IMG/VR virus record: IMGVR_UViG_3300033121_001301
Coordinates: 21,273-85,272 of that record
DNA length: 64,000 bases
Reading direction: 5' to 3' (one strand)
DNA from: a virus
Lineage: Duplodnaviria > Caudoviricetes
A program made the translations under genes and the position numbers. Below the pieces are notes generated by a model, which saw only the letters and a list, made by a program, of their open reading frames with translations, ran no database searches and was not told where the DNA came from. Shown piece after piece: positions 10,901 through 55,921 of the stretch. Each line of letters starts with the position of its first letter. Position 1 is the first letter of the stretch.

Positions 10901-11122
10901 CGCTCTTGTTGAATCAACATCGGGGGAATCAACTAGCCCCTTGTTGGTCTTTTCGAATGGCTTGTTTTGAAGATTGAGCAAGCTCTCAACAGCTTTATCG
11001 AAATAGGCATCTGGTAAGTGCCTGTAAAAATCAGGCAAGAACCACTCTGAAGTGCTACGTTGAACCAAATTGATGGACTTGTTCATGTAGCTAGGTAACG
11101 ATTGCTGGTTGGACACTGGCAT
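7910..11122 (-). CDS. polA: family A DNA polymerase with N-terminal family-4 UDG-like domain and 3'-5' exonuclease
   Basis: UDG-like: SKTPG..GRNFVSNSGRLL, TNLVKFAPP, LHPS. Exonuclease: DAE, GHSIKSD, YGAKD. Polymerase motifs: A ADFIGAEL, B RDAVKTIVFGIPYG, C QIHDA. Probable start 11122 (GGGAGA then ATG), not 11260. Confidence 0.95.
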   Translation of the reverse strand: MPVSNQQSLPSYMNKSINLVQRSTSEWFLPDFYRHLPDAYFDKAVESLLNLQNKPFEKTNKGLVDSPDVDSTRAMIYASALYSTNFHIDTVYKNQTLDVKFVPGHTWGGTQAGPAPARVMIVSKTPGKDDASKGRNFVSNSGRLLKEQFAMLNLPVDDWYITNLVKFAPPDNFSGALPKPWIKMCKTTLEAELAIVQPDFILCLGGEASKELLGVTVDRAYGLTYDYEYLTVPGDSTSKKTAKAVVCLHPSALAKQAAKLNQFQLSIRQFKDLIETGASMIEETGLHYYVIRSEKELNALVDHIIAVAPTKLALDAEWFGRLPIDPGAFLRCYQISWMAKHAAVIALTNDKGEYTFDGDPYAPLVRLINTVKPRLTGHSIKSDGMWLRKPLMERGLDIEEMLYPPELGILHGPAMTRVQGAFDTMLAAHAVRETGPFELESLGVLYLGVPRWDTKIHELRDKKIPFGFMPDEVLYPYGAKDVDVTFRLAELFDGVWTGPEPHQCVRPGYLDADPTFGLNSRQHFWISMMAMSAFMEMEETGILFDNKACTALREKFVEAKTRVLGELRQELKWPDFNPNSVNQKREMLFGEALNGKKPAEDGSVVKTRPEGALTLGLTPMKASGKGAMMWDKIVKENLVASYSPSTAKETLGIFAHTNPTVKRLLDYNFINQALNTALREVSEGNILYNDTDSGVDITDAAIAAADDEQHEDVMQRGLLDYVCSDGAVHSLYWQTKETGRASSAKPNLMAISKKRDKDYKRIVGAGFQPIRSLFIARPGTVLVEADFIGAELAMMAWLSGDELMIEHVRRSGLDENHPDYFDIHSSFAVEIFKLDLPPKKSALKDAGKSAFRDAVKTIVFGIPYGRGMEAVVMAVKEESGIEISVDDAGKIRDGIFARYPKLLPFLEKTKNRVTAPGYLRDALGGIRRFTIIGDDRKAVEDAKREAGNFRIQGSVARAMSLGLYNLRKYRRAIETNLNYRICNQIHDAAIAECATESLDRYVKHVLPTCLSKAVQFYAVDDDGKKVSDKLCQFDLDIHVYEKWGIDLSHDDCDRLKISRSYGKAPKAKAA

Positions 11123-12191
11123 TCTCTCCCTGAAAATAGTCAAACACATTAATTCCCTGCTTCTTGCAGGAGTCGTGAATAGCCTGCCACGACCTCTCTT
11201 CGCCCAAAGTGCCTGGATCATCAGTGAAAGGTATTTCAGCTCGAACAATGGGAGTGTCACAGTTAGACTTCAGTTGAATGAAGATCTTCTGTGATTCCTT
11301 TACTGCTGAGCCGTCGACCATCACCACAATCAAACAGTCATCTCCCCAATACGTTCGCAACAACTGCATTTGATCATGGGAAAGAGACTTGCTCCACAAA
11401 GCTACACTTCGAGTCCCTACTGTCCACACACTGCTTGGCCCTTCAACTACCACAACTATTCGACTGCGCCTGGCAACATCGAAATTGTAAAGGTACTTGC
11501 TTCGAGCCATTCGTCGCATGGTTCGGTACTTGGGGCACTCTGGAGTCCAAACCCTGTCCCCGATGTACCTGCACTGATAGCCAACCAACCTTCCCTCAAA
11601 GGACATGGGAATGTAGATTCGATTCAAACAGTCAACATGGTGTCCCCAGCTCACTGTGGTGACATAGCCGATGTTGTACCAGTCTACCAGGTTTTGAATG
11701 TTGTAACCTCGACCAGTCAGGTACGAAATGCAAGGTTGAAGGGGATTCATATCCTTTAACGAGATCACCGTACCCGGTGGCTCTGGTATCAGCGGCTTTT
11801 CATTGATAGCGTTGTCTGAAGGTGCAACGATACCAGAAACACCAAACCACGGTGTGTCACCGTAAGTCATGGTGTGGAATTGTGATCGCTTCTCTGGATC
11901 AGAGAAACAATTCTCTTCGTTAAAACACTTGATCATGTCGTCAACACTGCGGGCTGCATCTGCGTCCCACTGCATCCACATGTGATTGACGTACAATCTG
12001 CCTTTTGCGTCTCCACAATAAGGGCAATTCAGGCGATATGCCTCACCATTGACTGTACCCAAACCTCGAGAACGTCTGCCTGTAATGGGGTCTAATTGCC
12101 ACACTGGTCGATACGTTTCATTAGGTCTTACAATCTGCACATCACCAAACTTAGCCTTTAATCGTGCAAACAGTTCTGGGTTGAGAGCCAC
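11091..12191 (-). CDS. dnaG: DNA primase (Zn finger plus TOPRIM)
   Basis: CPYC...CFN..C zinc finger; RIYIP...GYQCR; TOPRIM VVVEG, MVDG and DDPG. Confidence 0.9.
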   Translation of the reverse strand: MALNPELFARLKAKFGDVQIVRPNETYRPVWQLDPITGRRSRGLGTVNGEAYRLNCPYCGDAKGRLYVNHMWMQWDADAARSVDDMIKCFNEENCFSDPEKRSQFHTMTYGDTPWFGVSGIVAPSDNAINEKPLIPEPPGTVISLKDMNPLQPCISYLTGRGYNIQNLVDWYNIGYVTTVSWGHHVDCLNRIYIPMSFEGRLVGYQCRYIGDRVWTPECPKYRTMRRMARSKYLYNFDVARRSRIVVVVEGPSSVWTVGTRSVALWSKSLSHDQMQLLRTYWGDDCLIVVMVDGSAVKESQKIFIQLKSNCDTPIVRAEIPFTDDPGTLGEERSWQAIHDSCKKQGINVFDYFQGENASVQPAIVT

Positions 12192-32227: not shown

Positions 32228-32653
32228 TTACGGGCTCACCAGGAAGCTGTTAGTTGTAAAGGATTCACCCAGGATACCTGACAGTACATACTCTACTTGC
32301 AGGCTGGCTTCAGCTGCATCCAGTGCAGCAGTCAATGCGTCGACCCGCTTCTGATAATCATCCTTGAGCTGCGGAATGCTCGTAGCGTCAAGATAGTAGT
32401 CTTCAAACACACTTGTCCGGAACTTGAGAGGGAATTCAGATTCTGGATCTGGTTCATCTTTGGGAATCGCCCCCAACTGGTAGGGGTTGGCAATCCCCTC
32501 AAACTTGTCGTTGTCTCCGTCTGTTTTCGTGTAGACAAATATTTCTTTGTCCATGTTGTTCGCAGATTCAGCTGTGACTCTGAACAGGTACGAAGGCATG
32601 GAGATGGAGATGTTAGACATCTCGAATTTCAAATTGACGCTATGTGGACCCAT
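32228..32653 (-). CDS. hypothetical protein, possibly virion
   Basis: 141 aa in the operon. Confidence 0.6.
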   Translation of the reverse strand: MGPHSVNLKFEMSNISISMPSYLFRVTAESANNMDKEIFVYTKTDGDNDKFEGIANPYQLGAIPKDEPDPESEFPLKFRTSVFEDYYLDATSIPQLKDDYQKRVDALTAALDAAEASLQVEYVLSGILGESFTTNSFLVSP

Positions 32654-32679: not shown

Positions 32680-33447
32680 TCAATCGCCCCAGAATACGAG
32701 ATCAGGGGTCGGGTAGACGGTCATACCAGCTCGAGCTGCCTGAGCTGTCAGGTTAGAGTAATTGTACAACCACTTGGGCTCAAGCTGGAATTCCCCAGGC
32801 TCAGCCACCTTCTGACCTATCTGCTCCCACCCCTTTTCCACGTTGTCTTTGTCGTGAAGCGAAGACATGTGGATGTCGCTGATGCCCCAGCGATAGATGT
32901 ACTGCCAGCGAGATCTGTCCAGCTCATTGGTAGCTGGGGGCTCATTCATGCGAAAAGCTCGATCTATCTCCAGGTCAGCACCAGAACTCATGATGGGGTA
33001 TCCACCCACCTTGGCGTAAGCTTTCCTGGTGAAGACTGAGCTGTTGTGGCCAACAAAGCTTTCCATCTTGGACAGGCCATGCTTGTTAAGCAGCCACTGA
33101 CCGTGAGACTTGTAGTACTGCGAGCCCAGTGCCTTGAGTGTCTCCATTGCCACCTGCAGCCGCATGGGCAAGCTGATGTCGTCATCATCCCAGGGTGCCA
33201 GGTAGTCACCCTGAGCCAGGGCAACTCCAATAGCCATCTTCTCTCCGTAGGTTCGGCAACGAAGAGGGAGATTGATGATCTTCACATCAGGATGATCAAA
33301 CACCAACTTCTGCTCGGGGCAGTCGTTGATGATGAGCAGCTCTTTATCGGGCCAACTCTGCTGCAGGAAAGACTGAATAGCCTCCTCTAGCAGGTAGGTG
33401 TAAGTTGGTGGTCTTTGAAAAGTGATGCAGATGCAGCTGACTTTCAT
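32680..33447 (-). CDS. GT-A fold glycosyltransferase, family 2
   Basis: VSCICITFQR, ELLIIND, GDYLAPWDDDDIS (DxD). Confidence 0.92.
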   Translation of the reverse strand: MKVSCICITFQRPPTYTYLLEEAIQSFLQQSWPDKELLIINDCPEQKLVFDHPDVKIINLPLRCRTYGEKMAIGVALAQGDYLAPWDDDDISLPMRLQVAMETLKALGSQYYKSHGQWLLNKHGLSKMESFVGHNSSVFTRKAYAKVGGYPIMSSGADLEIDRAFRMNEPPATNELDRSRWQYIYRWGISDIHMSSLHDKDNVEKGWEQIGQKVAEPGEFQLEPKWLYNYSNLTAQAARAGMTVYPTPDLVFWGD

Positions 33448-34310
33448 GTTACCCTCAGAGCGATGCTGTGATCAAAATGATAGTTCGCAGGCAGCACCTT
33501 TGAACAGATCTCTCTGATGTCAGTCATGTTCAAGTAGTTGGTAAAGTGCAGAATACACTGCGTCCACAGCTCATTGGGTTTGCGGAGCTTGGAGATGTTC
33601 AGCAGGTAGTTGGTGAACTTATCTGAGCTTTTCACCACATGGCTGATTGTCTTGCTGCTGTTGAAACTGTGCGTCCATTTGATGAAAGGCAAGCAAAGCG
33701 CTTTTCCCCCTCGATCGCGGTAGATCTCCTGAATGATCCCCTCTTCACCTCCGAAGCCTTTGGTGTCTGGATGGTAGCCAGGCCAGTTGACTCGATCAAC
33801 GCAGAACAAAGCTCCACCATGTCCGAAGATCTCAAAGGGTTGGTCTGTCACAGCTGTCTTGGCAAAGCGGTTGTGCCACTTGCCCATCATTCCTCCGCTC
33901 CACTCACTGGTCATCTCAGTGTGAGATATCTCCCCTTTAGCGTTATAAAGTATGCCATGTAGGATGTCTTTATTCCCAGCTGGGGTGGCTTGCAGATAGA
34001 CCAGCAATTGGTCAACAGCACCAGCACTAAGAAGTACGTGACTGTCAATCACCAGCACGTACTGAGACAAGCAGTGCTCAATGGCTTGGCTTTTAGCGTA
34101 GCAAGTACCTTGCTTGCTCACGTCTGTCACATATCGATCGACACCGTTGTTCTTGCAGAACTCAGTTGTCTTCTCGCATTTGCCGTAGTTATCGAATACC
34201 AGAATCCTGAAGTTCTTTCTGGTCTGATGCAGCCCCAGTGATTGCACTGTCAGGCTCAAACCACGATAGTCGTCAAACGTCACGATCGCGATTGTCAGAA
34301 GATCTCGCAT
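33444..34310 (-). CDS. GT-A glycosyltransferase with polypeptide GalNAc-transferase (GT27)-like motifs
   Basis: LTIAIVTFDD, LVFDN, VIDSH (DxH), GGALFCVDR, FGGEE.I...Y...GG....LP....THSF. Confidence 0.85.
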   Translation of the reverse strand: MRDLLTIAIVTFDDYRGLSLTVQSLGLHQTRKNFRILVFDNYGKCEKTTEFCKNNGVDRYVTDVSKQGTCYAKSQAIEHCLSQYVLVIDSHVLLSAGAVDQLLVYLQATPAGNKDILHGILYNAKGEISHTEMTSEWSGGMMGKWHNRFAKTAVTDQPFEIFGHGGALFCVDRVNWPGYHPDTKGFGGEEGIIQEIYRDRGGKALCLPFIKWTHSFNSSKTISHVVKSSDKFTNYLLNISKLRKPNELWTQCILHFTNYLNMTDIREICSKVLPANYHFDHSIALRVT

Positions 34311-34330
34311 AGTTGGCTCTCTAAGGACTG

Positions 34331-35443
34331 TTAGCTGAACATAGGAACATCCAAAGGAATGAACTCAGCTGAAGCTTCAAATCCTCCCCCGAAACCAGGA
34401 GCGATTGGGCAAAAGCCATCGTATAGCCTGAAAGCAGGGTAACCAGCCAGGAACCATCCGAATAAAGGTATTAAAAATTGACCAGGGTTAATGGGGCTAG
34501 CACCAACACCCCCACTGTTGTTCATCGCAGACAAGTTTGCCAGACTTCCTTTAATGGTAAATTTGAGTGGTGAAGTAGAGTCTAAAAATACGTCTGCACC
34601 CTCTATGATTCCTGCTTTGGTCTGATTATCAATAGTTGATTGTCCAAGCAGCCCACCCCCACCAGGAACCCAGTAGATTTTGGAGCAGTAGACTCTTCCG
34701 TAGGCTGCGACTTTGCTTGGATAAGTCGCCATACCTGCAACGGTATAACCTGGATTGGGGGGCTGCACAGGTATTTGTGGACCACCACCAAACCCAACAC
34801 TGCCAAAGCCAGTAGCAAATTGGTACCCACCTATTTTTACACAACGCCCATCTGGCATCGGTCTTATGGAAAGAGCTACTTCAAAGAATTCTGCTTCGGC
34901 AATTAATCCAGCCGCTGGAAATCCATTTTCGCTGGCGTAAACATTATAAGCAAAGCCGCTTATCTGAAACGCAGTTAGAGCTTTATTGAATGTAACAGAG
35001 CACCATTTGTCAGCCTGGCTAAATTGAGCTTGAACAGTTCTTTCACCAATAGTATTGCTAGGTGGCTCACCAAATTGTGGTTGTCTCGCTCTGTAGTTCT
35101 GGCTGGCTAGTCGAGGGGAAGACAACAAATTGGAGCAAACGGGTGAAAGCAAGGTAACTTTAGCGTCGTAGTTACCTGAATTAGGTCCACCTTGACCAGC
35201 GTCGTTGTACAGTAGATCGGCAGTATACGGTGATCTCGCGTAAGCTTCGCAGGAGCCGCCGCCAGGGGGTGGAGGTGGTTCAACTGGTATGTCGTCAGGT
35301 GGTTCCGGCTCAATCGTCGGATCGCCACCAGGTTCACCTGTTGGATCTTCACCAGGCGGCTCTGGCTCATCGTTGTTAACGCAACCAGCCCAAGTTTTTT
35401 CTATTGGTGGCACGTCCAGTAAGTCAGATTTTTTGCAGTTCAT
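34331..35443 (-). CDS. fibre/adhesin-like protein, cassette A
   Basis: N-terminal C..DVPPIEK..GC, Pro/Glu/Gly linker, beta-rich C-terminal domain; lower GC than the flanks. Confidence 0.55.
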   Translation of the reverse strand: MNCKKSDLLDVPPIEKTWAGCVNNDEPEPPGEDPTGEPGGDPTIEPEPPDDIPVEPPPPPGGGSCEAYARSPYTADLLYNDAGQGGPNSGNYDAKVTLLSPVCSNLLSSPRLASQNYRARQPQFGEPPSNTIGERTVQAQFSQADKWCSVTFNKALTAFQISGFAYNVYASENGFPAAGLIAEAEFFEVALSIRPMPDGRCVKIGGYQFATGFGSVGFGGGPQIPVQPPNPGYTVAGMATYPSKVAAYGRVYCSKIYWVPGGGGLLGQSTIDNQTKAGIIEGADVFLDSTSPLKFTIKGSLANLSAMNNSGGVGASPINPGQFLIPLFGWFLAGYPAFRLYDGFCPIAPGFGGGFEASAEFIPLDVPMFS

Positions 35444-35457
35444 GATTAGACCAGTTC

Positions 35458-36228
35458 TTACCCTAGATTGGGAGCCAGGCCATTGTTGCTGGCATTAAGC
35501 TCATAAAACAAGAGCTCTGTCACTTGCTTGTCGTAAATTCCCCAATTGGCACCACTGAAACCATAGTTGCCTAACTCATTAAACACATTCCTAGTCCAAC
35601 CTCCAGTTTGACCAAGCGGGCCAACTCCTCTATCCAGTTTATTTTGTACGCAGCAGGTAGCAATGAACGGACTCCAGGATTGTATCACAATGGTGTCCAG
35701 ACTATGCCAAACTTTTGGAACGTACAAAGCCAACGAATCTGTGGTTAACATGCCTGTCAGTTCATTAGTAGCTACGCCAAATCCATAGCCCCTTACAGGG
35801 GGTCCAAGCAGCAAACCCAGGTACATATTTTCCTGTATCACTTCGTACTGAGAAACTCCATAGTTTCCACCACCACCTATGTTGGTCATTCTTATCCGAC
35901 CAACTCTACCTATGCTTTCTCCTCTTTGAGCACTGACTGGAATATCAAAGCTAAATATGTGTGTGTAGTACTCATCGCCAATGTCTCCGTAAATAGTTCC
36001 ACCACCAGGAGGGGCTCCAAAATACTTTTTTAATTTGTGATAACCACCATTAGTGGTGTAGCACCAATTGAGAAAAAGTTTACTGGATGGAGTTTCAAAC
36101 ACTCCTATGGTTTTAGTAGGACCGGGTCGAGGGTTAGGTGGTGGTACAACGATGCCAGCGTTGCATCTGCCAAGTTCCTTCTCTATCGGTGGAACTTCCA
36201 CGATTTCGTAGTCCAAGCAGTCTTTCAT
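35458..36228 (-). CDS. fibre/adhesin-like protein, cassette B
   Basis: ATGA overlap gives a start at 36228; C..EVPPIEK..GRC, Pro linker, beta-rich domain; AT-rich. Confidence 0.55.
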   Translation of the reverse strand: MKDCLDYEIVEVPPIEKELGRCNAGIVVPPPNPRPGPTKTIGVFETPSSKLFLNWCYTTNGGYHKLKKYFGAPPGGGTIYGDIGDEYYTHIFSFDIPVSAQRGESIGRVGRIRMTNIGGGGNYGVSQYEVIQENMYLGLLLGPPVRGYGFGVATNELTGMLTTDSLALYVPKVWHSLDTIVIQSWSPFIATCCVQNKLDRGVGPLGQTGGWTRNVFNELGNYGFSGANWGIYDKQVTELLFYELNASNNGLAPNLG

Positions 36229-37388
36229 GTTATTTCCACCCAATCCGACATCGAAAATGTGACGTTAGGGAGTAACGGAGGAGAGTTAAAGTTTGGATTG
36301 CTGATTGGTGGTGGATTGAATATTTGACCAACCACGGTGACGCTAGGGGTGTTGTATTCGATGTACTCGGCTTGAGCTGTCATTGTACCTCCACCAGGCC
36401 AACCTATTCCTTCGGGGATGGCATTCACGGATCCCCCGCCAATCGCGGGAATTTGATCAATCAGCAAAAAAGCATTAAGACCATTAGTGTTCTCATCTAC
36501 AACTGAAGTTAAAACAAGATAGCGTTTCAAAGTGAATTTAATAAAAAACCTCGAGCCCCGTACACCTGAAGGTTCTCCATTAAATATGTTGCCAGTCAAT
36601 TGCCTGCACGACATGGAAAGATGGCCAGTCGTGACTGTAGTGAAAGAGACAGTTTGAGTTTCTGACCCCTGGCAGTCAGGTGGTCTTTGAACGAAGGTTA
36701 TTGGCCCAGACCCTATGGGATCTGGAACCCATCCGTATTTTTTATAGGTTGTTGTGACATGGACATCTGGCCCTAATTTCACAGCTTCCAATGTGTAGAG
36801 GTCGGGTGGCAGATAAGCCCCACTAAAGGCAAGACTCAGAGTTATTCCAGCATCTACTGCACCTTGTATCATTTGCTCAGCAAAAGGATCAGCTATGAAG
36901 TTTAACGAAGAGATAGCATGCGTTGCTTCGTTGCCAACAACTCTCGAGCTCCAATAGGGTGTACCCTCTAATGGTGGCCATTTATTGAAAAACGAAAATA
37001 ACCAGTCTGGGTATTCGATCGCAGCCACACCATTGCCGACTGGCTCCCAAGAAACCGTAATTTTCCTTGGATACTTATTACCGCAGGTGTCTTGAGGTGG
37101 ACCACCAGTAACTGGAGTGCAGCCTAATTCGGGCTTTGTTATCTTGGGGATGTCTTCTAGTGGATCGTCAAATTCAACACAGATCGGTGGAGCATCTTTG
37201 CTGAGTTTGAATTCTCTGTCTACCGCATCTCTGACACCAGAAAGCAAAGATGGGCTGTCTGCTGGTGCCCTGGGAGCAATCGGCGGGCTGGTAGGGGTTA
37301 TCGGTGGTTCAACTGGGGTAGTCGGTCCCGACTTACTAAACCAGTTCTTGAACCAGCTGTTAAACCATTTTGGATACCAGGAAGCCAT
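36225..37388 (-). CDS. fibre/adhesin-like protein, cassette C
   Basis: Pro/Thr/Ser-rich N-terminus, C..EDIPKITK..GC motif, beta-rich domain; AT-rich. Confidence 0.55.
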   Translation of the reverse strand: MASWYPKWFNSWFKNWFSKSGPTTPVEPPITPTSPPIAPRAPADSPSLLSGVRDAVDREFKLSKDAPPICVEFDDPLEDIPKITKPELGCTPVTGGPPQDTCGNKYPRKITVSWEPVGNGVAAIEYPDWLFSFFNKWPPLEGTPYWSSRVVGNEATHAISSLNFIADPFAEQMIQGAVDAGITLSLAFSGAYLPPDLYTLEAVKLGPDVHVTTTYKKYGWVPDPIGSGPITFVQRPPDCQGSETQTVSFTTVTTGHLSMSCRQLTGNIFNGEPSGVRGSRFFIKFTLKRYLVLTSVVDENTNGLNAFLLIDQIPAIGGGSVNAIPEGIGWPGGGTMTAQAEYIEYNTPSVTVVGQIFNPPPISNPNFNSPPLLPNVTFSMSDWVEIT

Positions 37389-37415
37389 TCGTTACTCGCA
37401 AGTTCAGATGAAAGA

Positions 37416-38156
37416 TCAAGCCGCTGTGGTTGTCTCAGGAACTGGAGTTGAAGCAGTAGCGGTCAATGTAGTAGTTGGTGCGGCAGTTGTTGAAGCGGTC
37501 GAGGAGGTATTTGGATCTGGAGTCGTTGTGCAACATCCAATGCTTAGCAATGGAATGTTATTCCAATACTCTCGAGCCACCACTGTCACCATCGGTTCCT
37601 TAACAGTCTGCTCAGTGCTGTTGTCACTCAAGTAGGGCAAACCCAAGTTACTTCCTGACGTGTCGTAGAACGACTGAGTCGCTGTAAAGGGAGTGCTTCC
37701 ATCTCGACAGATGTAAGTGATCTGCCCCATCGGGTCTGCGTGAGCTATTGGAGGGGCTCCATCAGCACAGAGAAGTCTTTCAACTTCTCCAACTACTGGA
37801 ACTCCCTCTCCGTTGCTTTTTACGGTGTTGCGTGGATCCCAGACCACGTCAAAAAGGTTCTCCTGTGGTTCTGCCTCTACATTGCCGATGGTTACCCCAG
37901 CTGGAACATCAATGTCTGGAGTAGTGAAAGAGTCAACAGCCACAGCTGATACTGTCAGCAGTCGTTGAGACTGCATGGTCAAGACATGCGATGGTAGCTT
38001 GGGCCAGCAGTCAACCTTCATCGGTGCAGTGGCTTTGATGACAGTCCCTTGTGGCAGCTCTACCATCAACGAATGCACGTCGAGACCACCACCAGGGCTG
38101 CAGGTGATGTCGGTGATGATCTTGATCTGATAAGCCATCTGTGGCTCATTCATCAC
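37416..38156 (-). CDS. tail-associated protein with mucin-like Thr/Ser/Pro C-terminal tail
   Basis: Ends in CCTTTPDPNTSSTASTTAAPTTTLTATASTPVPETTTAA. Confidence 0.6.
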   Translation of the reverse strand: MMNEPQMAYQIKIITDITCSPGGGLDVHSLMVELPQGTVIKATAPMKVDCWPKLPSHVLTMQSQRLLTVSAVAVDSFTTPDIDVPAGVTIGNVEAEPQENLFDVVWDPRNTVKSNGEGVPVVGEVERLLCADGAPPIAHADPMGQITYICRDGSTPFTATQSFYDTSGSNLGLPYLSDNSTEQTVKEPMVTVVAREYWNNIPLLSIGCCTTTPDPNTSSTASTTAAPTTTLTATASTPVPETTTAA

Positions 38157-39277
38157 TTCACCTTGGCAAAGATAGCTGGAATGATGGCCGTCAGCTCGTT
38201 GGCGCTCGATGGGAACGTCGCAGGTAGAGAGCTGTAGGTGTAATCAATCGCGTAGCCCAGCACCGGGTCGAGGAAGCCATTGTCCCAACCCATGTAAGCC
38301 CAGGCACCTTCTTTGGGAATCGAGTACAAGCCCATGCTGGAAGAGTTAGCCAGGACAACCAACCATACCAGTTGACCAGCAGCTAAGACCGTGTCGGTGA
38401 TTGAAATGGACTTCGGGCCTGCGCTACCGCCGTTGAAAACACCGTTGGCAGCTGTAAGCAAGCTTCCTGGGTAATTTCCTGCGTTAGCATAAATTCCTAG
38501 TTTGCCCTCATCTCCTGGATTACCAGCAGCAAGGATCTTGATACCAAGCTCGCTCAGCGTCACTCCACCGGGGGCGGCGAAGGGAACAGCCAGCAGCTGA
38601 TTTCCAGGCAGGTTAGCATTGGCACCCATTGGGGAGAAGCTAATTGGCCCCAGGTACCACCTTCCTGAAGCCATAGCGGGCAAAGCAGCCGGTCCGGTGG
38701 CTCCGGTGGCTCCGGTGGCTCCAACGGCTCCTGTGGTGCCTGGGATGCCCTGGATGCCCTGCAGACCTTGAAGTGGCAGATATTCGCCCGCGTTGTACAA
38801 GAAGGCACCACCCTGGCCGTCAGCGAACAGAAGAGGGTGCTGGATGCCAGCTGTGGGTCGAATACTCAGCAACAGCCCGGCAGTGGTCTGGGAGACGTAA
38901 TAGATGCCAGCTGCTGGGATAGCTTCCCCGGTAGAGGCTGTCAGATCGATGGAAGTGATGTAACCACCCATCTGCACATCGCATAGCACGTCCCCATGCT
39001 TGGCAATGCACAAGCCGACCGCTGGTCGAACGCCAGCGATCGCAGGCTCAAACGAATTGGTCGGTGCCCACCAGCACACAGGCATGCCCACTGCAACAGC
39101 TGCCACGCAGCGATTGTTAGTGGCAATGATTCTATTTGAGCTGATGGCTGCAAGCTCTTGCTGCAGGAGTTGTTGATTGTTTGACAGCTGCTGTAAAGGC
39201 TTATTCAACGAAGAAGCATTGATATCGCCTGTCTCAGCCTGGGTCAGGGAATCTACTGGTGCAAGGACAATGGCCAC
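38153..39277 (-). CDS. tail fibre protein with collagen-like segment
   Basis: GLQGIQGIPGTTGAVGATGATGATGP (Gly-X-Y) followed by a beta-sandwich-like C-terminus; follows the baseplate genes. Confidence 0.75.
   Translation of the reverse strand: MAIVLAPVDSLTQAETGDINASSLNKPLQQLSNNQQLLQQELAAISSNRIIATNNRCVAAVAVGMPVCWWAPTNSFEPAIAGVRPAVGLCIAKHGDVLCDVQMGGYITSIDLTASTGEAIPAAGIYYVSQTTAGLLLSIRPTAGIQHPLLFADGQGGAFLYNAGEYLPLQGLQGIQGIPGTTGAVGATGATGATGPAALPAMASGRWYLGPISFSPMGANANLPGNQLLAVPFAAPGGVTLSELGIKILAAGNPGDEGKLGIYANAGNYPGSLLTAANGVFNGGSAGPKSISITDTVLAAGQLVWLVVLANSSSMGLYSIPKEGAWAYMGWDNGFLDPVLGYAIDYTYSSLPATFPSSANELTAIIPAIFAKVK
38694..38729. repeat. 9-bp tandem repeat encoding collagen-like Gly-Ala-Thr units
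   Basis: CCGGTGGCT x3 plus CCAACGGCT. Confidence 0.85.
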
Positions 39278-39807: not shown

Positions 39808-41243
39808 ACTCCAATAGTTGGGTTGCCACCAAATGACGTGCCAACACCCAGTCCATAATAGCCAGCTGTACCCTGGAACACCACGCCGAACTCAGGTTCA
39901 ACACCCACAGGTCCAGGGTAAGTTCCACCCAGTACTTCATGTTTTACGATTGTCTTCAGCATCTGGTGACCTGGAATCAGTTTTTGCAGGGCATTGAGGA
40001 ACTCAAAGCCACTGACTGAATTTACCTGATTGGTGTCCACAGACAGCAAGATGACATTGAAGCGAAACAAGTTCTCCAGCAGCAGATCCACCATTGGATT
40101 CATGTCCGTTGGCAGGTGCATGGCTTCTGGTTCGGTAGTGGGGTTTTCCCTGCTATCCAGGCTTTGGGCCAGGGTCATACCAGCTGTGATTCCTCGCGTG
40201 TGTACGTCATTCCAATAGGTCTCTACCGACAAAGCATCTCCGTAGAGAGGCAGTGTCAGCTTGGTGTAATTGGCCTGCGTGGAGACTGTGGTTGGCAGCA
40301 GCTGATTGGGGAAGATGATGTCACTATGGTAGTCAGGGCCAAGCTCAGACTGGCTGATAGCCAAAGATGGCAGATCCACATCCCCAGGTTTGTTGATGTT
40401 GTACCACTTGATGGCTGAGCTGATCTGCTGACCCTTCTTGAGCTTATCCCCCACAGCCACGGTGATCGTGACTGTCGTAGGGTAGTGGTAGACAGACTTG
40501 TCAGTGATCACCAGCTTCTCGTCAGGGTACACCAGCAGGTATTTGACTACCTCATCGTGGATTTCACAGACAGGGTTACCGAAGGCTCTACCAAGGCCGA
40601 TTGTCATGTTCTCCAGGTTGCAGCCGTGGGTGAGACAATCCTTGAGGGAGAAAAGCGCTTTTCTCTGATCTTCATTTGTGACAGTGGGGTAGCTGAGTAG
40701 CCAGCCCCAGTTCTTCGCGATCGGAGAATCTGCTATTTTCGGCTCAGAAATGCGGAATTCCATGAAGCGATCAGCTTCCAGGTTATCAGCGTCAAGTTCC
40801 ACAAATAGCGAATCTGAATTAGTGGCAAGGATGTCTACAGGGAAGAGAATTCGAAGTCCATCTCCCCAGGGCTCCAGTTGGAAATCGATGCCCCGAAACA
40901 GCACCAAACCTGTTTCAAACATGGAGACTGAAAGCTCGTCGAAGTACACAACTTCAGGCAGTTCAAACCAAAACAAGCCACTGCTGGTCTTTTGCTTCTC
41001 ACTTACCTTGAGCACCAGCTTCTTCGGAGGCAGGATGTTCTGCAGCAGGGTGTTCTCAATGAAAGCCAGGTTGTTGTACTGGTAAGAGAGCTTCCACACG
41101 TCATCAAACGAAAACACCAACGCATTGCACAATGCTCGATAGAACTCCCGGTCACCAGACAGGGCATTGAAATAAGTTCCAAGTGCTCGCTGAAGTGCAG
41201 AAGCTATTGCTGGTAAGTCAGCGTCGTTGATGTTGTATTTCAT
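39801..41243 (-). CDS. baseplate wedge subunit
   Basis: Follows the baseplate J-like gene in canonical order; 480 aa. Confidence 0.6.
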   Translation of the reverse strand: MKYNINDADLPAIASALQRALGTYFNALSGDREFYRALCNALVFSFDDVWKLSYQYNNLAFIENTLLQNILPPKKLVLKVSEKQKTSSGLFWFELPEVVYFDELSVSMFETGLVLFRGIDFQLEPWGDGLRILFPVDILATNSDSLFVELDADNLEADRFMEFRISEPKIADSPIAKNWGWLLSYPTVTNEDQRKALFSLKDCLTHGCNLENMTIGLGRAFGNPVCEIHDEVVKYLLVYPDEKLVITDKSVYHYPTTVTITVAVGDKLKKGQQISSAIKWYNINKPGDVDLPSLAISQSELGPDYHSDIIFPNQLLPTTVSTQANYTKLTLPLYGDALSVETYWNDVHTRGITAGMTLAQSLDSRENPTTEPEAMHLPTDMNPMVDLLLENLFRFNVILLSVDTNQVNSVSGFEFLNALQKLIPGHQMLKTIVKHEVLGGTYPGPVGVEPEFGVVFQGTAGYYGLGVGTSFGGNPTIGVW

Positions 41244-42877
41244 CGGATGGTCACGCTCACTTGATCTTGGCTGGAGTAGAACGCCACCGTTTTCCAGGTG
41301 AGCAGATTGTCTGGGTCATCTGGTATCGTGATTTTGGTTCCGTCATAACCGACAGTTAAATTATCGTTATCGATCGTCTTGATGCTGCAAGTCATGGAAG
41401 TAACTGCAACCACCAGGCTGGGGTTCACACTTCTCGCAGCAGCAGCCACGTCAGCTACCGTCAGTGTTTTAGTAAACAGCTGACCGTTGATCATTTGGAT
41501 GACAGCACTCTTGGCAGCATCAGCAGAGCTGGAAGCGTTTGGGCCAGAAAGCTCAATGGCTAGGAACACCTGCGCTGGAGCTGCATGACGTACCAACACG
41601 TCGCCAGCGCCACTGCGGATAGCTGGAGAACCCAGGTATTGCTGCAGCTCAGCAATCTTGGGATCGAAATAGGTCAACGCCAGATAAGACCGGGAAGCCC
41701 CAACATTGACACTGGTCACGTCATATCGATTGTCTTCGAATAGCACCTGAAGATTGCAGAACTCAGAAAAGGCGGCTTCTTTGACGCTTCGCACGTCCGG
41801 TATGTATCTCTCACCCTCCAGTGGAGCCAGGTTAGTCTGGTCAGCCGCCAGTACAAACACTTCGGAGCTTGGATAGAACTTGGTACCGCTTTGATTGTCT
41901 TGAGCAACGATGTTGACAATCTTGTAGATGCCCGGTGCAGCAGTACCACCCAGCGTGAATGACCAGGTGCCGATTGATCCAACCTTAGAAACAAGTACAG
42001 CACTTACTGTGACCGCTTCAGAGTACAGTCCAGCCCGGTTCTTCACCCACAAGTCCACCCTGCCACCAGTTGCACCTGGAAGCACTCCTCGGCGGTCTCT
42101 CTGCTGCTCAGCATCACCGAAGCCAGCTACAGAAATGTCTATCAGTTCAGGGTAATTCCCAGTGCTTCTGGCCATGGCTTCGAAGGAATTGCGACCAGAC
42201 CAGCTCTTGACCGAGCTTTCACTGAGAGCCCTGTCAGCCAGCTGCTCGTCAGTTTCAGCTGCTTTACCAGTTCCAGCTGACTTGACTACTTTGACTTCAA
42301 CCAGATTGGATACGCTCTTGGAGAGAGTCAGCAAAGTGTCTACAGCCAGGTTGTACTCGGAACCCACAGCCCTGGCAGTGAGGCTAAGTACAATACCCCA
42401 TCTCCCAGTTCCAATCTGAGACAGCACCAGATCCGTGCTGGTTACCACTGTTGAGCGAGAGCTTCTGACGCTGACTGACTGAGCTACAGAGAACTTGGCT
42501 GAACCGCTGTAAACATAATCGGCAGTCGAAAGGCTGAACGGAGCTGCACTGGAAAAAGAGAACAACACATTGATGGTGTTCTTTGTTCCAGCTTCTCTGG
42601 TCATTCCAAACATGCCAGCAACTTTGTCAGCTTGTTCGGTGGTCAGTTCACCCTTTGACAAAGACTCCAGGTTCAGCTTGTCGATGTCTTCCAGCAGGTT
42701 GGTGACGGTACTGGCTAACAACAAGCCGTGCAGATAGGGAAGAAGACGGAAAGCCGCCTGGCGATTGAAATCAATGCCAACACCGAGTTCATTGAGCCTG
42801 GTGGTCAGGTTTTCAGTTGTCCCGTCCACAGTTGTCTGTGGCAACCCTTTCAGGCTCGGTACTTCGTAGTTAGTCAT
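41240..42877 (-). CDS. baseplate J-like wedge protein
   Basis: DKVAGMFGMTREAG, LTARAVGSEYN, GKAAETDEQL..RA and GGRVDLWV are Baseplate_J hallmarks. Confidence 0.85.
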   Translation of the reverse strand: MTNYEVPSLKGLPQTTVDGTTENLTTRLNELGVGIDFNRQAAFRLLPYLHGLLLASTVTNLLEDIDKLNLESLSKGELTTEQADKVAGMFGMTREAGTKNTINVLFSFSSAAPFSLSTADYVYSGSAKFSVAQSVSVRSSRSTVVTSTDLVLSQIGTGRWGIVLSLTARAVGSEYNLAVDTLLTLSKSVSNLVEVKVVKSAGTGKAAETDEQLADRALSESSVKSWSGRNSFEAMARSTGNYPELIDISVAGFGDAEQQRDRRGVLPGATGGRVDLWVKNRAGLYSEAVTVSAVLVSKVGSIGTWSFTLGGTAAPGIYKIVNIVAQDNQSGTKFYPSSEVFVLAADQTNLAPLEGERYIPDVRSVKEAAFSEFCNLQVLFEDNRYDVTSVNVGASRSYLALTYFDPKIAELQQYLGSPAIRSGAGDVLVRHAAPAQVFLAIELSGPNASSSADAAKSAVIQMINGQLFTKTLTVADVAAAARSVNPSLVVAVTSMTCSIKTIDNDNLTVGYDGTKITIPDDPDNLLTWKTVAFYSSQDQVSVTIR

Positions 42878-43267: not shown

Positions 43268-43741
43268 CTACCTTCCGTGGTTTACTATGTCAAAGACAGA
43301 GTTGAGTACACAAGAAAAGACACCACCCTCGTCTCCGTCATTTTTTCCATGCCCTTTTCGTCTTGCTGCAGCATGGCACATAGCTTGAATCGGCGTGGTG
43401 TGCCTGGCGCGAAACGCTCTTTCTCTTTGTGACAAGTACCCGCTTTGAATCTGGCAAGCAGCGATGTCAGCAAGAGTGCCACGATCGGTGTCGTCGTCAC
43501 CAGGTTCAGCTCGATTAGAGGCGGTGTAAATAGCCAGCTGATAGTCGAGATCAATAGAGGATCTGTCAAAGGCTTCAGCCATTGATTCCCGGTCAAACAA
43601 ATCTCCATCCCAGGAGAGTCCGACCATGGGGGGAAACGACCATGTCCCCCCAATACCATCTTTGTGTTGAAGGTACATCTCATGGCTGTCAGCTGATAAC
43701 TGGTTCAGCGTATCGATGAGCAGTGGTGAAATCTCAACCAT
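43268..43741 (-). CDS. hypothetical protein
   Basis: 157 aa, coupled by start/stop overlap to the sigma gene. Confidence 0.6.
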   Translation of the reverse strand: MVEISPLLIDTLNQLSADSHEMYLQHKDGIGGTWSFPPMVGLSWDGDLFDRESMAEAFDRSSIDLDYQLAIYTASNRAEPGDDDTDRGTLADIAACQIQSGYLSQRERAFRARHTTPIQAMCHAAARRKGHGKNDGDEGGVFSCVLNSVFDIVNHGR

Positions 43742-44508
43742 TATCGAGCCCTCGAATGATAGTGATCGAGCTGTTCTTGCAGCTTAACTTTTCTTTGACT
43801 GATGGCTGCAGGGGTTACACCTAACTTAGCGGCGATGCCCATATTATCCAGTTTTGGTTTTCCATTGAGCCCAAACGAGTGCTCTAGCAGTACTTTGTCC
43901 TGCTCGCTGGAGTTGTGGTAAATGAAATTCAGCCAGGCTTGTTGGGGCTTGGCGTGATTCTCTACAGCTGGCAAGTCGGGAGATGCTTCAGGGTTGCTGG
44001 TGTCATAGAAGCGACCTTCGTTAATCACCGCTGGTAACCGACGCAGCTTACTCAGCTCTTTGACGTTCAGTCCGGAGAGACTGGAAATCTCATCGTCAGA
44101 AGGATCTCTTCCATTTTCGTTCTTGAAGTCACTGGTTACCCGATCCAGCCTTCGACGTTGAATAGCCATTCGCTCTGGGATGCCAACTACCATGCCCTCT
44201 TGACCAGCGTATCTCTTCAGGCTCTGGAGCTGAGAGAACACATGTGTTGGAAGCTTGGCACCACTGCTTGGCTGAAAGCTTTGTGCTGCATCCAGCGCCA
44301 GCATCTTGGCCCTGCTCTTGATGGTTGGTGAGGCAGTGGGGCCAACGTGAGTAGTAATAGCCTTCTGGATAGTGGGATTAAGCTGTTTGAGCAGGTGGGT
44401 GCTCAATGTGGGAGTCGGACTTCTCATCCATGCAGTATGCAGGTTATCCAGGGTCATATCCCCTACTGGCTGAACTCCGGAAGTGCTATTAGGGGCGAAC
44501 CTGTCCAT
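43741..44508 (-). CDS. sigma-70 family RNA polymerase sigma factor (regions 2-4)
   Basis: AAQSFQPSSGAKLPTHV (region 2), VGIPER..GRDPSDDEISSLSGL (region 3), FGLNG..DNMGIAAKLGVTPAAISQ (region 4 HTH). GGAGG RBS before ATG 44508. Confidence 0.88.
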   Translation of the reverse strand: MDRFAPNSTSGVQPVGDMTLDNLHTAWMRSPTPTLSTHLLKQLNPTIQKAITTHVGPTASPTIKSRAKMLALDAAQSFQPSSGAKLPTHVFSQLQSLKRYAGQEGMVVGIPERMAIQRRRLDRVTSDFKNENGRDPSDDEISSLSGLNVKELSKLRRLPAVINEGRFYDTSNPEASPDLPAVENHAKPQQAWLNFIYHNSSEQDKVLLEHSFGLNGKPKLDNMGIAAKLGVTPAAISQRKVKLQEQLDHYHSRAR

Positions 44509-46253
44509 ATATTCCTCCAAATCGGATGCTCGTCGCTGGCAAATGCTTCGTCGTTATTTTCCTCTAATGTCCTTAAATAGGCAATGTGGAAAACAGTTGA
44601 GGTGGTGGCATTACCATTGGCACCGATGCTGATTGACCAGGTTACTCTAGCTACTCTGCCGACTAAATCTGTGTCGGTGGTGTTGATACTGTTCAGTACT
44701 GCTTCCACCATCGGGTCTGGAGCCGACTGAATAAGCACAGAAGAGCCTGGGCCAATGTCAAAGCGAAGATTGCAGGAAATGACAGCCTGCTTCATTTTGG
44801 TGGCTTCCTGTAAGTAGGTAGCCTTCGCTAAAGCATTTGCCAGTGTCTCGCAGGCTTGTCTCTTCTCAGCCATAGCTTCTGAGATAGCATCGTTTACAAA
44901 GCCACCAAGAGCTACAGCTACTCGCGGCCTGGGGTTAGCAGCTACAGGTATGTTGCCACTGAGTGGTGCAGTCAGACTGGAGAACCCCTGCATAAACAGA
45001 TCGTTGATCCAACCTGGTGCCTCAACGTACATGGTCATGCCGTTCTTGGATCCACTCACCGGGGATGGGGTGGGCTCGTAATAGCCAAGAACTCGTCTAT
45101 TAGTGATGACAGAGCCACCAGCTTGCTGCGCTGATCGCAAGCCAGTAGCTGAAGCATACCCGCCTATCACTGCCACAGCCTTAACGGGCCGACGCACCGT
45201 GCTGGTGTAGTTCAGCATCTCGAACTCATCAGTCGCTATTCTGGTGTACGTTCGATTGAGCCAGGGAGTGTAAGGAACAGTAAGAATCCTGTCCACCATG
45301 GGAATGACAGTAAACATGAACTGCGGAGCAATCCCACTCACCAGTCTGTCCCAGATGGTTTGCCCGAGAACATTGGTGTTGTAAACCGAATCAGTCATCA
45401 TGCTTCTGATCTTGAGTGCCAGCTGACCGCTTGCAGCTATGTCTCCTCGAAGACTTAATGGAGTCCCATACTCGTACATGTATGCATTGATTTCTTCATC
45501 AAAAAAGGGCTCGAAGTACGAGAGAGCTTTCTCCATCAAAACATTGACTCGGGGGAAGTCTCCAGCTGGCATTTGTGAGCCGGTGAAGTTGGCAATCTGC
45601 TGCCAGTTAAAGAGTCGTTCGCTGGCAGTGGCGTAGAGGAAGTTACGAATACCACCACCAAAACCATCATCCCAGGTGTCAGTTGTGATGACCTGTGGGC
45701 TGAAGTTAGCAATGGCCTTACTCAAAGCGGTACTGCCAACGATAACTCGATTAAGCCCTGTCCCTTGTACGGTGCTGGCATTGAATAAGAAATCGCCAGG
45801 GGTATTGGGGAACACGTCTTCACTGAAAGGACTGCTGAAATCGAGATCTGAAACCCAATGGGTCAATCGGATGATGGCACTTCGAGATCCCATCGAGACT
45901 GATGGCACCACGTCAGAAACCCAGCCCTCGAAAGCCGTGAACCAGTCTTCTGGCCACGTCTGGTTTGAGTAGCCAGATAGATCCAATCTTCTCACTCGCA
46001 ACCTGACGATAGCTCTGGATGGTAGCCTCATCAGTTTTTCTTTGAGGTGAAAGGGAGACAAGCCGAGCCAATTGTCAGGCAGCTCTCCGTCTCGACCAGT
46101 AGCGACTGACACCGTGCAGAAAGGTATGCCGTTCTCTTCGTGATTACCACGGATTTCTGAAATAGGCATATCTACCATTTCAGCAACACCGAGGTGCGCT
46201 CCCACGTAGACATACAGCTTTGCTTCAATGTGCAGCTTCTCGTAATTCATCAC
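44463..46253 (-). CDS. baseplate hub protein (gp27/gp44-like)
   Basis: Size, position after the tape measure, and the CNLRFDIGPGSSVLI...VGRVARVTWSI C-terminal barrel. Confidence 0.6.
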   Translation of the reverse strand: MMNYEKLHIEAKLYVYVGAHLGVAEMVDMPISEIRGNHEENGIPFCTVSVATGRDGELPDNWLGLSPFHLKEKLMRLPSRAIVRLRVRRLDLSGYSNQTWPEDWFTAFEGWVSDVVPSVSMGSRSAIIRLTHWVSDLDFSSPFSEDVFPNTPGDFLFNASTVQGTGLNRVIVGSTALSKAIANFSPQVITTDTWDDGFGGGIRNFLYATASERLFNWQQIANFTGSQMPAGDFPRVNVLMEKALSYFEPFFDEEINAYMYEYGTPLSLRGDIAASGQLALKIRSMMTDSVYNTNVLGQTIWDRLVSGIAPQFMFTVIPMVDRILTVPYTPWLNRTYTRIATDEFEMLNYTSTVRRPVKAVAVIGGYASATGLRSAQQAGGSVITNRRVLGYYEPTPSPVSGSKNGMTMYVEAPGWINDLFMQGFSSLTAPLSGNIPVAANPRPRVAVALGGFVNDAISEAMAEKRQACETLANALAKATYLQEATKMKQAVISCNLRFDIGPGSSVLIQSAPDPMVEAVLNSINTTDTDLVGRVARVTWSISIGANGNATTSTVFHIAYLRTLEENNDEAFASDEHPIWRNIWTGSPLIALPEFSQ

Positions 46254-55258: not shown

Positions 55259-55921
55259 TTAACCTACAGCTATTGCTGGTCGGTCATAGGTGATTGGAGT
55301 GTTGTTATTGTTCGAGACAATGCCAGAGTTTGAAGTATTGGTCGAAGTGGTGCTGAAGCTGGTAGCCAGAGTAGCAGCATAGTTGGATTGACCCAGACCA
55401 ATACCCATGCTTCCAAAGGCACCGCAAGCAAAGGCGTTTACAGTTGGTATCTGCAAACTGATGAACATGAAGGGCAGATTGGCCTGGAACATCATGTCCT
55501 GTGATGCGACCTGGAAGCCGAAAGATTGCAGAACGCAGTGGTTGACTGAGAAAGCAAAATTACCGACTGTTGCATTCTTACAACCTGCACCCACTGCCAC
55601 CATGAAGTTGTTGTTCTTGATGGCGCAACCTTGACCAAAAGCCAGGTAGAAGCAGTAGTTGATAGGGCGAGGGCCGATGATCTTGCCGAAGTTGCCCTGA
55701 CCTTGAGGTCGTCCGATGATGAAGTACTGAGATGCTGGAATCCCCAGTCCAACCGCACCAAAATCATAGATACGCATTACAGGTTGAGTGTACTGCAACA
55801 TCATGTTGGTAGTTAGAATGCCAGCCTCAGACCAGCCATTTGGCCCAGCGAAAAGAATGACAGCCTGATCGGCTGACATAGCTTCTCCGAAGGCCATAGG
55901 GGCGTGTCCAAACATGTCCAT
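55259..55921 (-). CDS. tail tube protein
   Basis: Directly after the sheath, about 220 aa, beta-rich, followed by a terminator, with a GGAG RBS. Confidence 0.75.
   Translation of the reverse strand: MDMFGHAPMAFGEAMSADQAVILFAGPNGWSEAGILTTNMMLQYTQPVMRIYDFGAVGLGIPASQYFIIGRPQGQGNFGKIIGPRPINYCFYLAFGQGCAIKNNNFMVAVGAGCKNATVGNFAFSVNHCVLQSFGFQVASQDMMFQANLPFMFISLQIPTVNAFACGAFGSMGIGLGQSNYAATLATSFSTTSTNTSNSGIVSNNNNTPITYDRPAIAVG

Follow-up and report, generated by a model that had tools for sequence, protein, structure and literature searches.

Two adjacent genes of a tailed phage encode soluble glycosyltransferases, here called GT1 and GT2. By sequence profile and by fold, GT1 is closest to the polypeptide-directed enzymes of family GT27, the polypeptide N-acetylgalactosaminyltransferases (ppGalNAc-Ts), over its entire catalytic domain. 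The phage is known from an 85-kb IMG/VR virus record (IMGVR_UViG_3300033121_001301; Duplodnaviria, Caudoviricetes), of which bases 21273–85272 were analysed; this stretch of 64,000 nucleotides (nt) is called the window, and positions in the phage refer to it. The same operon encodes a 246-residue protein with a threonine-rich tail. We propose, with a probability of roughly 0.6, that the locus is a late, phage-encoded protein O-glycosylation module, in which GT1 and GT2 would sugar-coat the poly-Thr tail of the 246-residue protein. The proposal builds on the folds and motifs of the enzymes, the synteny of the locus, a tail that the orthologues keep, and the same three parts found again in bacteria. 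Its main components are:

33444..34310, minus strand: GT1, 288 residues, soluble GT-A glycosyltransferase, GT27-like, with DxH (D89, H91), GFGGEE (185–190) and a C-terminal His (H214)
32680..33447, minus strand: GT2, 255 residues, soluble classical GT2-type enzyme, with the DxD motif in the form DDDD (87–90)
37416..38156, minus strand: 246-residue fibre-module protein with a Thr/Ser/Ala/Pro tail, proposed main acceptor

GT1 resembles polypeptide GalNAc-transferases in sequence and fold

An earlier reading of the DNA without database searches (the sequence-only reading) had noted four motifs in GT1, all of which are present where it placed them: D89-S90-H91 (nt 34046–34038), GGALFCVDR (33818–33792), FGGEE (33755–33741) and THSF (33674–33663). 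Conservation shows that these motifs did not arise by chance. When 18 relatives and the 150 best family representatives were aligned, residues D40, D89, H91, G119, W137, G143, F186, W212, H214 and F216 were invariant, and E190 was present in 149 of the 150 best representatives. GT1 fits the signature D..D-x-H..GFGGEE..P...W-x-H-R/S-F of an uncharacterised prokaryotic DxH/GFGGEE family.

GT1 matches the Pfam model PF00535 (E = 3.9e-7, 30.6 bits, cut-off 23.3), a match that cannot separate GT2 from GT27 because GT27 catalytic domains also come under GT2-type models. A PDB search with the single GT1 sequence returned a weak match to TarP alone, confined to the N-terminal half, and GT27 emerged only when the family profile was used. 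The first match of that profile was GalNAc-T10 (2d7i; E = 2.7e-8) across profile positions 13–215, the whole catalytic domain, with DSH aligned to DSH, FGGEE to WGGEQ and the His of W-T-H-x-F to the His of V-G-H-I-Y. In the hidden Markov model alignments with GalNAc-T10 and T7, the spacing from FGGEE to THSF follows the GT27 block WGGEN...CGG...P...GH.F position for position. Ordinary GT2-type enzymes (TarP, DPMS, PglI, TarS) aligned to the GT1 profile over its first ~110 positions only.

The AlphaFold (AF2) model of GT1 has a mean predicted local distance difference test score (pLDDT) of 93.2 and a predicted template modelling (TM) score of 0.91. In a Foldseek comparison with the PDB the top ~47 matches were all ppGalNAc-Ts, with E values down to 6e-14 and a TM score of 0.71. 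The independent all-against-all aligner VIA placed mouse GalNAc-T1 first (Z 21.5, 258 residues, 3.3 Å) and Toxoplasma GalNAc-T3 second (Z 20.9), followed by K4CP (18.6), B4GALNT1 (17.3) and generic GT2-type enzymes (at most 17). The likeness to GT27 that had been drawn from the motifs is thus borne out by the family profile and by both structural comparisons. GT1 includes no hydrophobic segment, and we propose that it would be the initiating protein O-glycosyltransferase of the module.

GT1 is not assigned to GT27 or GT60

Taujale et al. (PMC7185993) report that only GT27 and GT60, two families of polypeptide Ser/Thr transferases, have DxH in place of DxD. [quoted passage not shown] Inverting enzymes use as catalytic base the Asp of an xED motif at the start of helix F; the residue at this position is also kept in some retaining families, and the base of GT43 is a Glu (PMC7185993).

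GT1 carries D89-S-H91 in alignment with the DSH of GalNAc-T10, and this Asp and His are found in 150 of the 150 best representatives. The putative third metal ligand is the invariant H214, which aligns with the His of VGHIY in T10 and T7. The xED triplet of GT1 is G188-E189-E190, immediately before a helix (192–199) of the AF2 model. E190 aligns with an Asn or Gln of GT27, and the block, though identical in spacing, does not have the WGGEN/Q form. The family, as judged from its alignment, appears to combine the metal site of GT27 and GT60 with a carboxylate where the base would be. E190 does not allow the anomer of the product to be predicted, because some retaining families keep that residue and the GT43 base is Glu. 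GT1 has no ricin-type lectin domain (288 residues, no Pfam Ricin_B match, a model that ends in three helices), and it has no match to the GT60 model PF11397 at E <= 0.1. We do not file it as a member of GT27 or GT60 because of the Glu at the xED position, the missing lectin domain and the missing PF11397 match. GT1 is GT27-like in fold and probably in acceptor class; "mucin-type" in the strict alpha-GalNAc sense would be a hypothetical label for it.

The GT27 enzymes compared (mouse GalNAc-T1 8v9q, human T2 2ffu, T10 2d7i and Toxoplasma GalNAc-T3 8uhv) share with GT1 the GT-A fold and a GGE-containing block with the same spacing up to the His. The DxH and C-terminal His of GT1 correspond to the triad Asp209/His211/His344 of mouse T1 (PMC4202792). 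GT1 is also genomically linked to a Thr-rich candidate acceptor. It differs from GT27 in being prokaryotic and viral, in its low identity (14–17%), and in having neither a ricin-type lectin domain nor a membrane anchor, the latter being the reason why we regard it as cytoplasmic; in place of the lectin domain it has a conserved helical C-terminal extension (residues 228–272). The protist polypeptide alpha-N-acetylglucosamine (GlcNAc) transferases of GT60 (Dictyostelium, Trypanosoma cruzi) are like GT1 in having DxH and no lectin domain; they act on Ser/Thr-rich acceptors and belong to a GT-A clade in common with GT27 (PMC7185993, PMC8724618). No solved GT60 structure was among the structure matches of GT1, and phage proteins named 'Glycosyltransferase, GlcNAc' were distant fold matches (TM 0.55–0.6).

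GT2 is an ordinary DxD enzyme

The DxD enzyme of the GT2 type that had been described as following GT1 is present at 32680–33447, with DDDD87–90 at nt 33189–33178 and a PF00535 match above the cut-off (6.6e-10, 39.6 bits; cut-off 23.3). Its start overlaps the stop of GT1 by 4 nt. Profile matches included heparosan synthase, TarS, PglI and SpsA, and in VIA comparisons of its AF2 model (pLDDT 92.6) CgT/GalT1 (19.2), WrtF, SpsA, TarS and heparosan synthase all scored near Z 19. GalNAc-T1 came only twentieth (Z 13.5), and since GT2 served as a control in this comparison, the GT27 signal is specific to GT1. GT2 contains no hydrophobic segment. It is an ordinary DxD glycosyltransferase, probably an inverting one, and we propose that it acts as the chain extender.

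A threonine-rich tail is conserved in the tail-fibre module

The most extreme Thr tract of the 85-kb record is the C-terminal tail of the 246-residue protein. The conserved body of this protein ends with NIPL..IGCC and is followed by 37 residues (nt 37529–37419), 16 of which are Thr, whereas Thr makes up 6.3% of the phage proteome (binomial 2e-10 per position). The mucin-like tract that had been reported at 37416–37535 is this tail, and it is conserved in nine orthologues. Eight aligned orthologues, 38–76% identical in the body, and the one at locus L085 all have IGCC followed by a Thr-rich tail of 35–65 residues, in which Thr is accompanied by Ser, Pro, Ala or Gly. The tails cannot be aligned with one another: composition is kept, sequence and length are not. 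The 246-residue protein has no Pfam, PHROG or ESM Atlas match, and its own model is of low confidence (pLDDT 0.34). Both enzymes are encoded at each of the six loci where the flanking DNA reaches far enough (the window, L002, L003, L004, L085 and L087). These loci belong to one lineage, and within it the expected co-occurrence of enzyme pair and Thr tract in related phages holds.

Three further proteins of the module lie between the 246-residue protein and GT1:

36225..37388, minus strand: 387-residue fibre-module protein with a Trp-rich N-terminus and a Pro/Thr linker, possible minor acceptor
35458..36243, minus strand: 261-residue fibre-module paralogue that carries a Pro-rich linker and a Cys-bracketed VPPIEK motif
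34331..35443, minus strand: 370-residue paralogous fibre-module protein, immediately 5' of GT1, with a Cys-bracketed Pro/Glu-rich linker

A second tract had been noted at about 37270–37335. The sequence PTTPVEPPITPTSPP does occur there (37325–37281), in the Pro/Thr linker of the 387-residue open reading frame (ORF), but the orthologues are not Thr-rich at this site and the segment is a generic Pro-rich linker: they keep the Trp-rich start and the Pro-rich linker, not the Thr content. In the window the linker of the 370-residue protein is not Thr-rich, unlike those of its orthologues in L002 and L003. The 387-, 370- and 261-residue proteins might have offered main acceptors in their N-terminal Pro/Thr linkers, but we rejected these, as their Thr content is not conserved; they are rich in Pro and Glu, vary in Thr and are minor candidates at best. 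The preference for T-P-x-P contexts that the sequence-only reading had invoked is a property of GT27 isoforms and is not transferable to the GT1 family. Its statement that the enzymes directly follow the tract-bearing proteins applies to the module as a whole, the 246-residue gene itself being separated from GT1 by three genes.

The proteins of the fibre module open with a Trp-rich amphipathic stretch (MASWYPKWFNSWFKNWF; MNWRTWWSGWTSWWSG) that is followed by a Pro-rich linker, a character kept across relatives (window 36225–37388, with the stretch at nt about 37388–37330; L002 8352–9236; L003 8381–9220; L004 8260–9150). The region 34331–37388 holds three tandem paralogues with a short Cys-bracketed VPPIEK-like motif, Pro-rich linkers and divergent C-terminal domains, which have the look of receptor-binding cassettes that can be exchanged; three large genes (633, ~1115–1150 and ~200 residues) are inserted among them in L002 and L003. 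Elsewhere in the window, beside very large structural genes, a 220-residue protein (55259–55921) has a Ser/Thr-rich tract near its C-terminus (ATLATSFSTTSTNTSNSG) that could be a further acceptor or a chance occurrence.

GT1 belongs to a large, mostly bacterial family

A word-indexed homologue search found 18 relatives of GT1, all metagenomic and, where inspected, in phage-like contexts, and the idea of a tiny phage-only family that these suggested was overturned by an exhaustive profile search. The latter gave 11,602 representatives at a threshold of E <= 1e-3, of which 1245 also passed E <= 1e-30, and most are 500–1300 residues long. The family, with at least 1245 representatives, is large and mostly bacterial. 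Species genomes contributed 427 relatives (31–38% identity) from Thermomicrobiales and other Chloroflexota, Hyphomicrobiales (Labrys, Bradyrhizobium, Ahrensia), Desulfobulbaceae, Gammaproteobacteria and others. In a FastTree phylogeny the phage clade of the window (11 sequences) is monophyletic on a long branch and has no specific bacterial sister, and hence the tree gives no hint of the host. The closest viral entry in UniProt, A0A6J7WYC1, is named merely as a GT-A domain protein.

Additional domains found in family members are a second GT2-type domain, GT25, GT9, an FkbM-type methyltransferase, a cyanophycin-synthetase-like ATP-grasp, DUF7164 and TPR. An N-terminal domain resembling HprK-related kinases is present in 44 of the 150 best representatives; examples are the fusions at L048 6891–8852 (Labrys sp.) and P0045 (TIGR04352, 1e-9). 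This architecture suggests that phosphorylation of a peptide or protein is coupled to its glycosylation. Relatives of the kinase domain reportedly phosphorylate Ser in lasso-peptide precursors, and by analogy the fusion might lend weak extra support to peptide or protein substrates. In P0033 and L073 (6111–8825) the GT27-like domain is fused to a RimK-like ATP-grasp region, which NCBIfam describes as cyanophycin-synthetase-like in P0033; the L073 protein comes after a Cys-rich poly-Thr protein.

Poly-Thr partners and enzyme fusions recur in bacteria

The neighbourhoods (±8 kb) of family members at 78 bacterial loci were searched for non-overlapping ORFs with a Thr tract, defined as at least 45% Thr in a 20-residue window; 680 genes from 800 kb of regions remote from the enzyme, drawn from five of these genomes, served as control. 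Tracts were found in 19 of 884 genes at the family loci and in 4 of the 680 control genes. Among the genes that flank the enzyme, 11 of 146 have a tract (Fisher 2.7e-6 against the same control). All 11 are at position -1, nine of them on the same strand with gaps of 35–292 nt. Raising the threshold to at least 60% Thr left 12 of 884 genes at family loci and none of the 680.

The positive loci are distributed over several subclades of the enzyme tree and at least four phyla; judged by their titles, the records represent Thermomicrobiales, Chloroflexia, Ktedonobacteraceae, Gemmatimonadaceae, an actinomycetotal metagenome-assembled genome (MAG), Alphaproteobacteria and another Pseudomonadota MAG. 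Their partners are small proteins, many of which start with a Tat-like leader (FDxL...S/T-RR-x-x-L-K, then a hydrophobic stretch) and have Cys-rich modules with runs such as TTTTTTTTTSAPTTTTTTT behind or within them. The phage tail shares this layout, with poly-Thr after a Cys motif. The start of the partner at L084 looks PqqD-like, in place of a Tat-like leader. Partner genes directly upstream of the enzyme are:

L007, 7406–7858
L010, 6726–7643
L021, 7308–7886
L050, 2414–3169
L055, 1345–2007
L073, 4783–5991
L082, 7407–7862
L084, 3234–3974

At L021, L055 and L082 the enzyme right after the poly-Thr gene has two glycosyltransferase domains. The N-terminal one is of the GT27-like family, and the C-terminal one is 41–45% identical to the phage GT2 over its full length (E about 1e-61). 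Homologues of both enzymes are also adjacent, in reversed order, in an unrelated phage with a DUF5907 fibre and an amidase lysin (L005, 9267–10723). Because the two are fused in bacteria and adjacent in this second phage, we place GT1 and GT2 of the window in one pathway. No convincing poly-Thr tract was found near the L005 pair, and the association with poly-Thr is therefore not universal. The link of the enzyme pair with Thr-rich proteins that had been proposed for the phage recurs independently in bacteria, where the pathway, judged by gene order and fusion, appears to be tied to poly-Thr proteins.

Proposed mechanism and alternative explanations

Phage proteins fold and assemble in the cytoplasm. 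During virion assembly, soluble GT1 in the host cytoplasm would bind a uridine diphosphate (UDP)-sugar through Mn2+ held by D89, H91 and H214, and would place the first sugar on hydroxyl groups of Thr or Ser in the disordered poly-Thr tail of the 246-residue protein, with the Thr-bearing linkers of neighbouring fibre-module proteins perhaps as further targets. The translationally coupled DxD enzyme GT2 would then lengthen the glycan. The modified protein would join the periphery of the fibre or baseplate as a bottle-brush, mucin-like appendage, which may serve in shielding or masking, stiffening, protease resistance of the exposed appendage, or adhesion. What we infer in this scheme is which protein is the acceptor, in which order the enzymes act, which sugar and anomer are involved and what biological role the glycan has.

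Several observations weigh against it. K4CP and B4GALNT1, the next-best fold neighbours of GT1, act on glycans or lipids. A tail that keeps composition and position without sequence would fit a glycosylated disordered acceptor and equally a plain spacer, and Thr/Pro-rich tracts are also found as plain flexible linkers. The genes of the 246-residue protein and GT1 are separated by three genes in the window and by three to six across the phage loci. The six phage loci, being one lineage, are not independent, and a negative control is missing, as no relative without the enzymes was found among the loci of 246-residue orthologues; scans of viral and of metagenome contigs for such enzyme-less orthologues gave one locus each, L085, which has both enzymes, and L086, which at 2.8 kb is too short. 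A poly-Thr neighbour occurs at only ~14% of the bacterial loci, and the bacterial link is guilt by association, measured against random regions and not against neighbours of other glycosyltransferases. The completeness of the phage record is estimated at 41%.

The phage proteins could be glycosylated without the 246-residue tail being the target, or the sole one, if the enzymes acted on the linkers of the 370-, 261- and 387-residue proteins or on capsid or tail proteins encoded elsewhere. The 370-residue paralogue adjoins GT1 upstream, the bacterial partner is likewise at position -1, the orthologues in L002 and L003 have Thr-rich, Cys-bracketed linkers, and the 220-residue protein bears a Ser/Thr tract. 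Thr in the linkers is, however, sparse in the window, in L003 (279 residues) and in L004, and only the tail of the 246-residue protein is Thr-rich in every orthologue, and we regard these other targets as unlikely, though worth keeping in mind. A rather improbable alternative is that the enzymes modify a host envelope glycan (lipopolysaccharide/O-antigen, exopolysaccharide or a teichoic-acid-like polymer) for superinfection exclusion or progeny release, as prophage TarP and Gtr do, with the Thr tail as an unmodified linker. Phage GT2-type genes are commonly annotated in this way; TarP, TarS, PglI and heparosan/chondroitin synthases are among the search relatives, chiefly in the N-terminal half, and K4CP and B4GALNT1 follow the ppGalNAc-Ts in fold. 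These matches span only the generic nucleotide-binding half of GT1, whereas the full-domain matches are GT27 enzymes. Neither GT1 nor GT2 has a membrane segment, their genes stand at the end of a late structural operon, and the recurrent poly-Thr gene at -1 and the bacterial fusion would be left unexplained.

That association would be equally unexplained if the enzymes glycosylated modified bases of the phage DNA, as in glucosyl-hydroxymethyl pyrimidines. The phage PolA does have a UDG-superfamily domain, but no thymidylate-synthase-like hydroxymethylase was found among 20 large replication-region proteins of the window, which is part of a record 41% complete. The glycosyltransferase genes are in the tail-fibre operon, outside the replication module, and the closest folds are polypeptide transferases. 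We consider this explanation very improbable.

A broader reading goes beyond coating of the 246-residue tail, its chances falling a little short of even. The phage module may be a compact copy of a widespread prokaryotic mucin-like system that consists of a DxH GT-A initiator from the GT27/GT60/GT7 clade, a fused or adjacent GT2-type extender and dedicated poly-Thr tails. In bacteria it would act on small Cys-rich proteins that bear Tat-like leaders; phages would have taken it over for tail-fibre coating; and the invariant Glu would make the initiator a mechanistic intermediate between inverting (GT7) and retaining (GT27) enzymes.

Relation to known glycosylation systems

To our knowledge, glycosylated phage virions have so far been described mainly for mycobacteriophages, and the dense O-glycosylation that GT27-type initiators start on Thr-rich domains is regarded as an invention of eukaryotes. 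Mycobacteriophages offer a precedent for phage-encoded virion glycosylation (Freeman et al. 2023, as cited in PMC11256854). Che8 and its relatives reportedly encode glycosyltransferases that put O-linked glycans on virion proteins; the glycans are reported for capsid proteins, and the enzyme genes lie near the right end of the genome (PMC11256854). In the window, by comparison, the enzyme genes close the tail-fibre operon, GT1 is GT27-like, and a poly-Thr tail is the candidate acceptor.

Streptococcal serine-rich-repeat adhesins are glycosylated stepwise by soluble cytoplasmic enzymes (GtfA/B, then extenders such as the GalT1/CgT domain, 5hea), and their dedicated Ser/Thr-rich substrate is O-glycosylated before export or assembly, as proposed for the phage. 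The initiator of that system is a GT-B enzyme. CgT is the joint-best fold for GT2 (Z 19.2), but it is tied with generic GT2-type enzymes and hence is not specific.

Systems that glycosylate phage virions, and systems dedicated to O-glycosylating Ser/Thr-rich substrates, are already known. New here are the uncharacterised enzyme family, its size and bacterial spread, the poly-Thr partner at -1, the link by fusion and the conserved Thr tail of the phage; the literature that was searched gave no description of GT27-like enzymes in phages or of a pairing of poly-Thr proteins with GT27-like enzymes in bacteria. If the proposal is correct, the module would be a prokaryotic and viral counterpart of mucin-type initiation and would bear on the split of the GT7/GT27/GT60 clade into inverting and retaining enzymes. 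It would also suggest that many environmental phages have glycan-coated fibres, with effects on adsorption, stability and antibody recognition, and would provide a small system of two enzymes and a tag for mucin-like glycoproteins in bacteria.

Setting of the locus in the phage genome

All large ORFs from ~32.2 kb to the end of the window are on the minus strand. In the order of transcription they include genes for a baseplate J-like protein, a collagen-repeat fibre, the 246-, 387-, 261- and 370-residue proteins, the two glycosyltransferases and a 141-residue ORF, beyond which lie a divergent block and, further along, a lambda-type large terminase. GT1 and GT2 are co-oriented with the fibre genes, and no terminator-like site was found on the minus strand between the two groups. 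The remaining members of this series are:

41240..42877, minus strand: baseplate J-like protein (PF04865, 5.5e-6, above cut-off)
38153..39277, minus strand: 374-residue collagen-repeat tail-fibre protein, whose stop overlaps the start of the 246-residue gene
32228..32653, minus strand: 141-residue ORF, after GT2 in every related phage (synteny in L002, L003, L004 and L087)

The baseplate J-like gene marks the operon as one for baseplate and tail fibres. The 374-residue protein matches Pfam Collagen (6e-4, under the curated cut-off) and the PHROG families collagen-like minor tail (6e-6) and tail fibre (1.5e-4), and the 141-residue ORF has no Pfam or PHROG match. Nucleotide and protein searches of 50,697 phage records gave no match to the locus, PHROGs contain no family for GT1, GT2 or the fibre-module proteins, and NCBIfam has none for GT1. 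The relative L002 is a 212-kb contig.

Two other genes of the window deserve mention. A family A DNA polymerase (7910–11260) combines the N-terminal UDG-superfamily domain with a 3'-5' exonuclease domain. Within the baseplate operon, a 259-residue protein (43741–44520) has a weak match to Sigma70 region 3 (3.5e-3, under the cut-off) and may be a late sigma-like factor.

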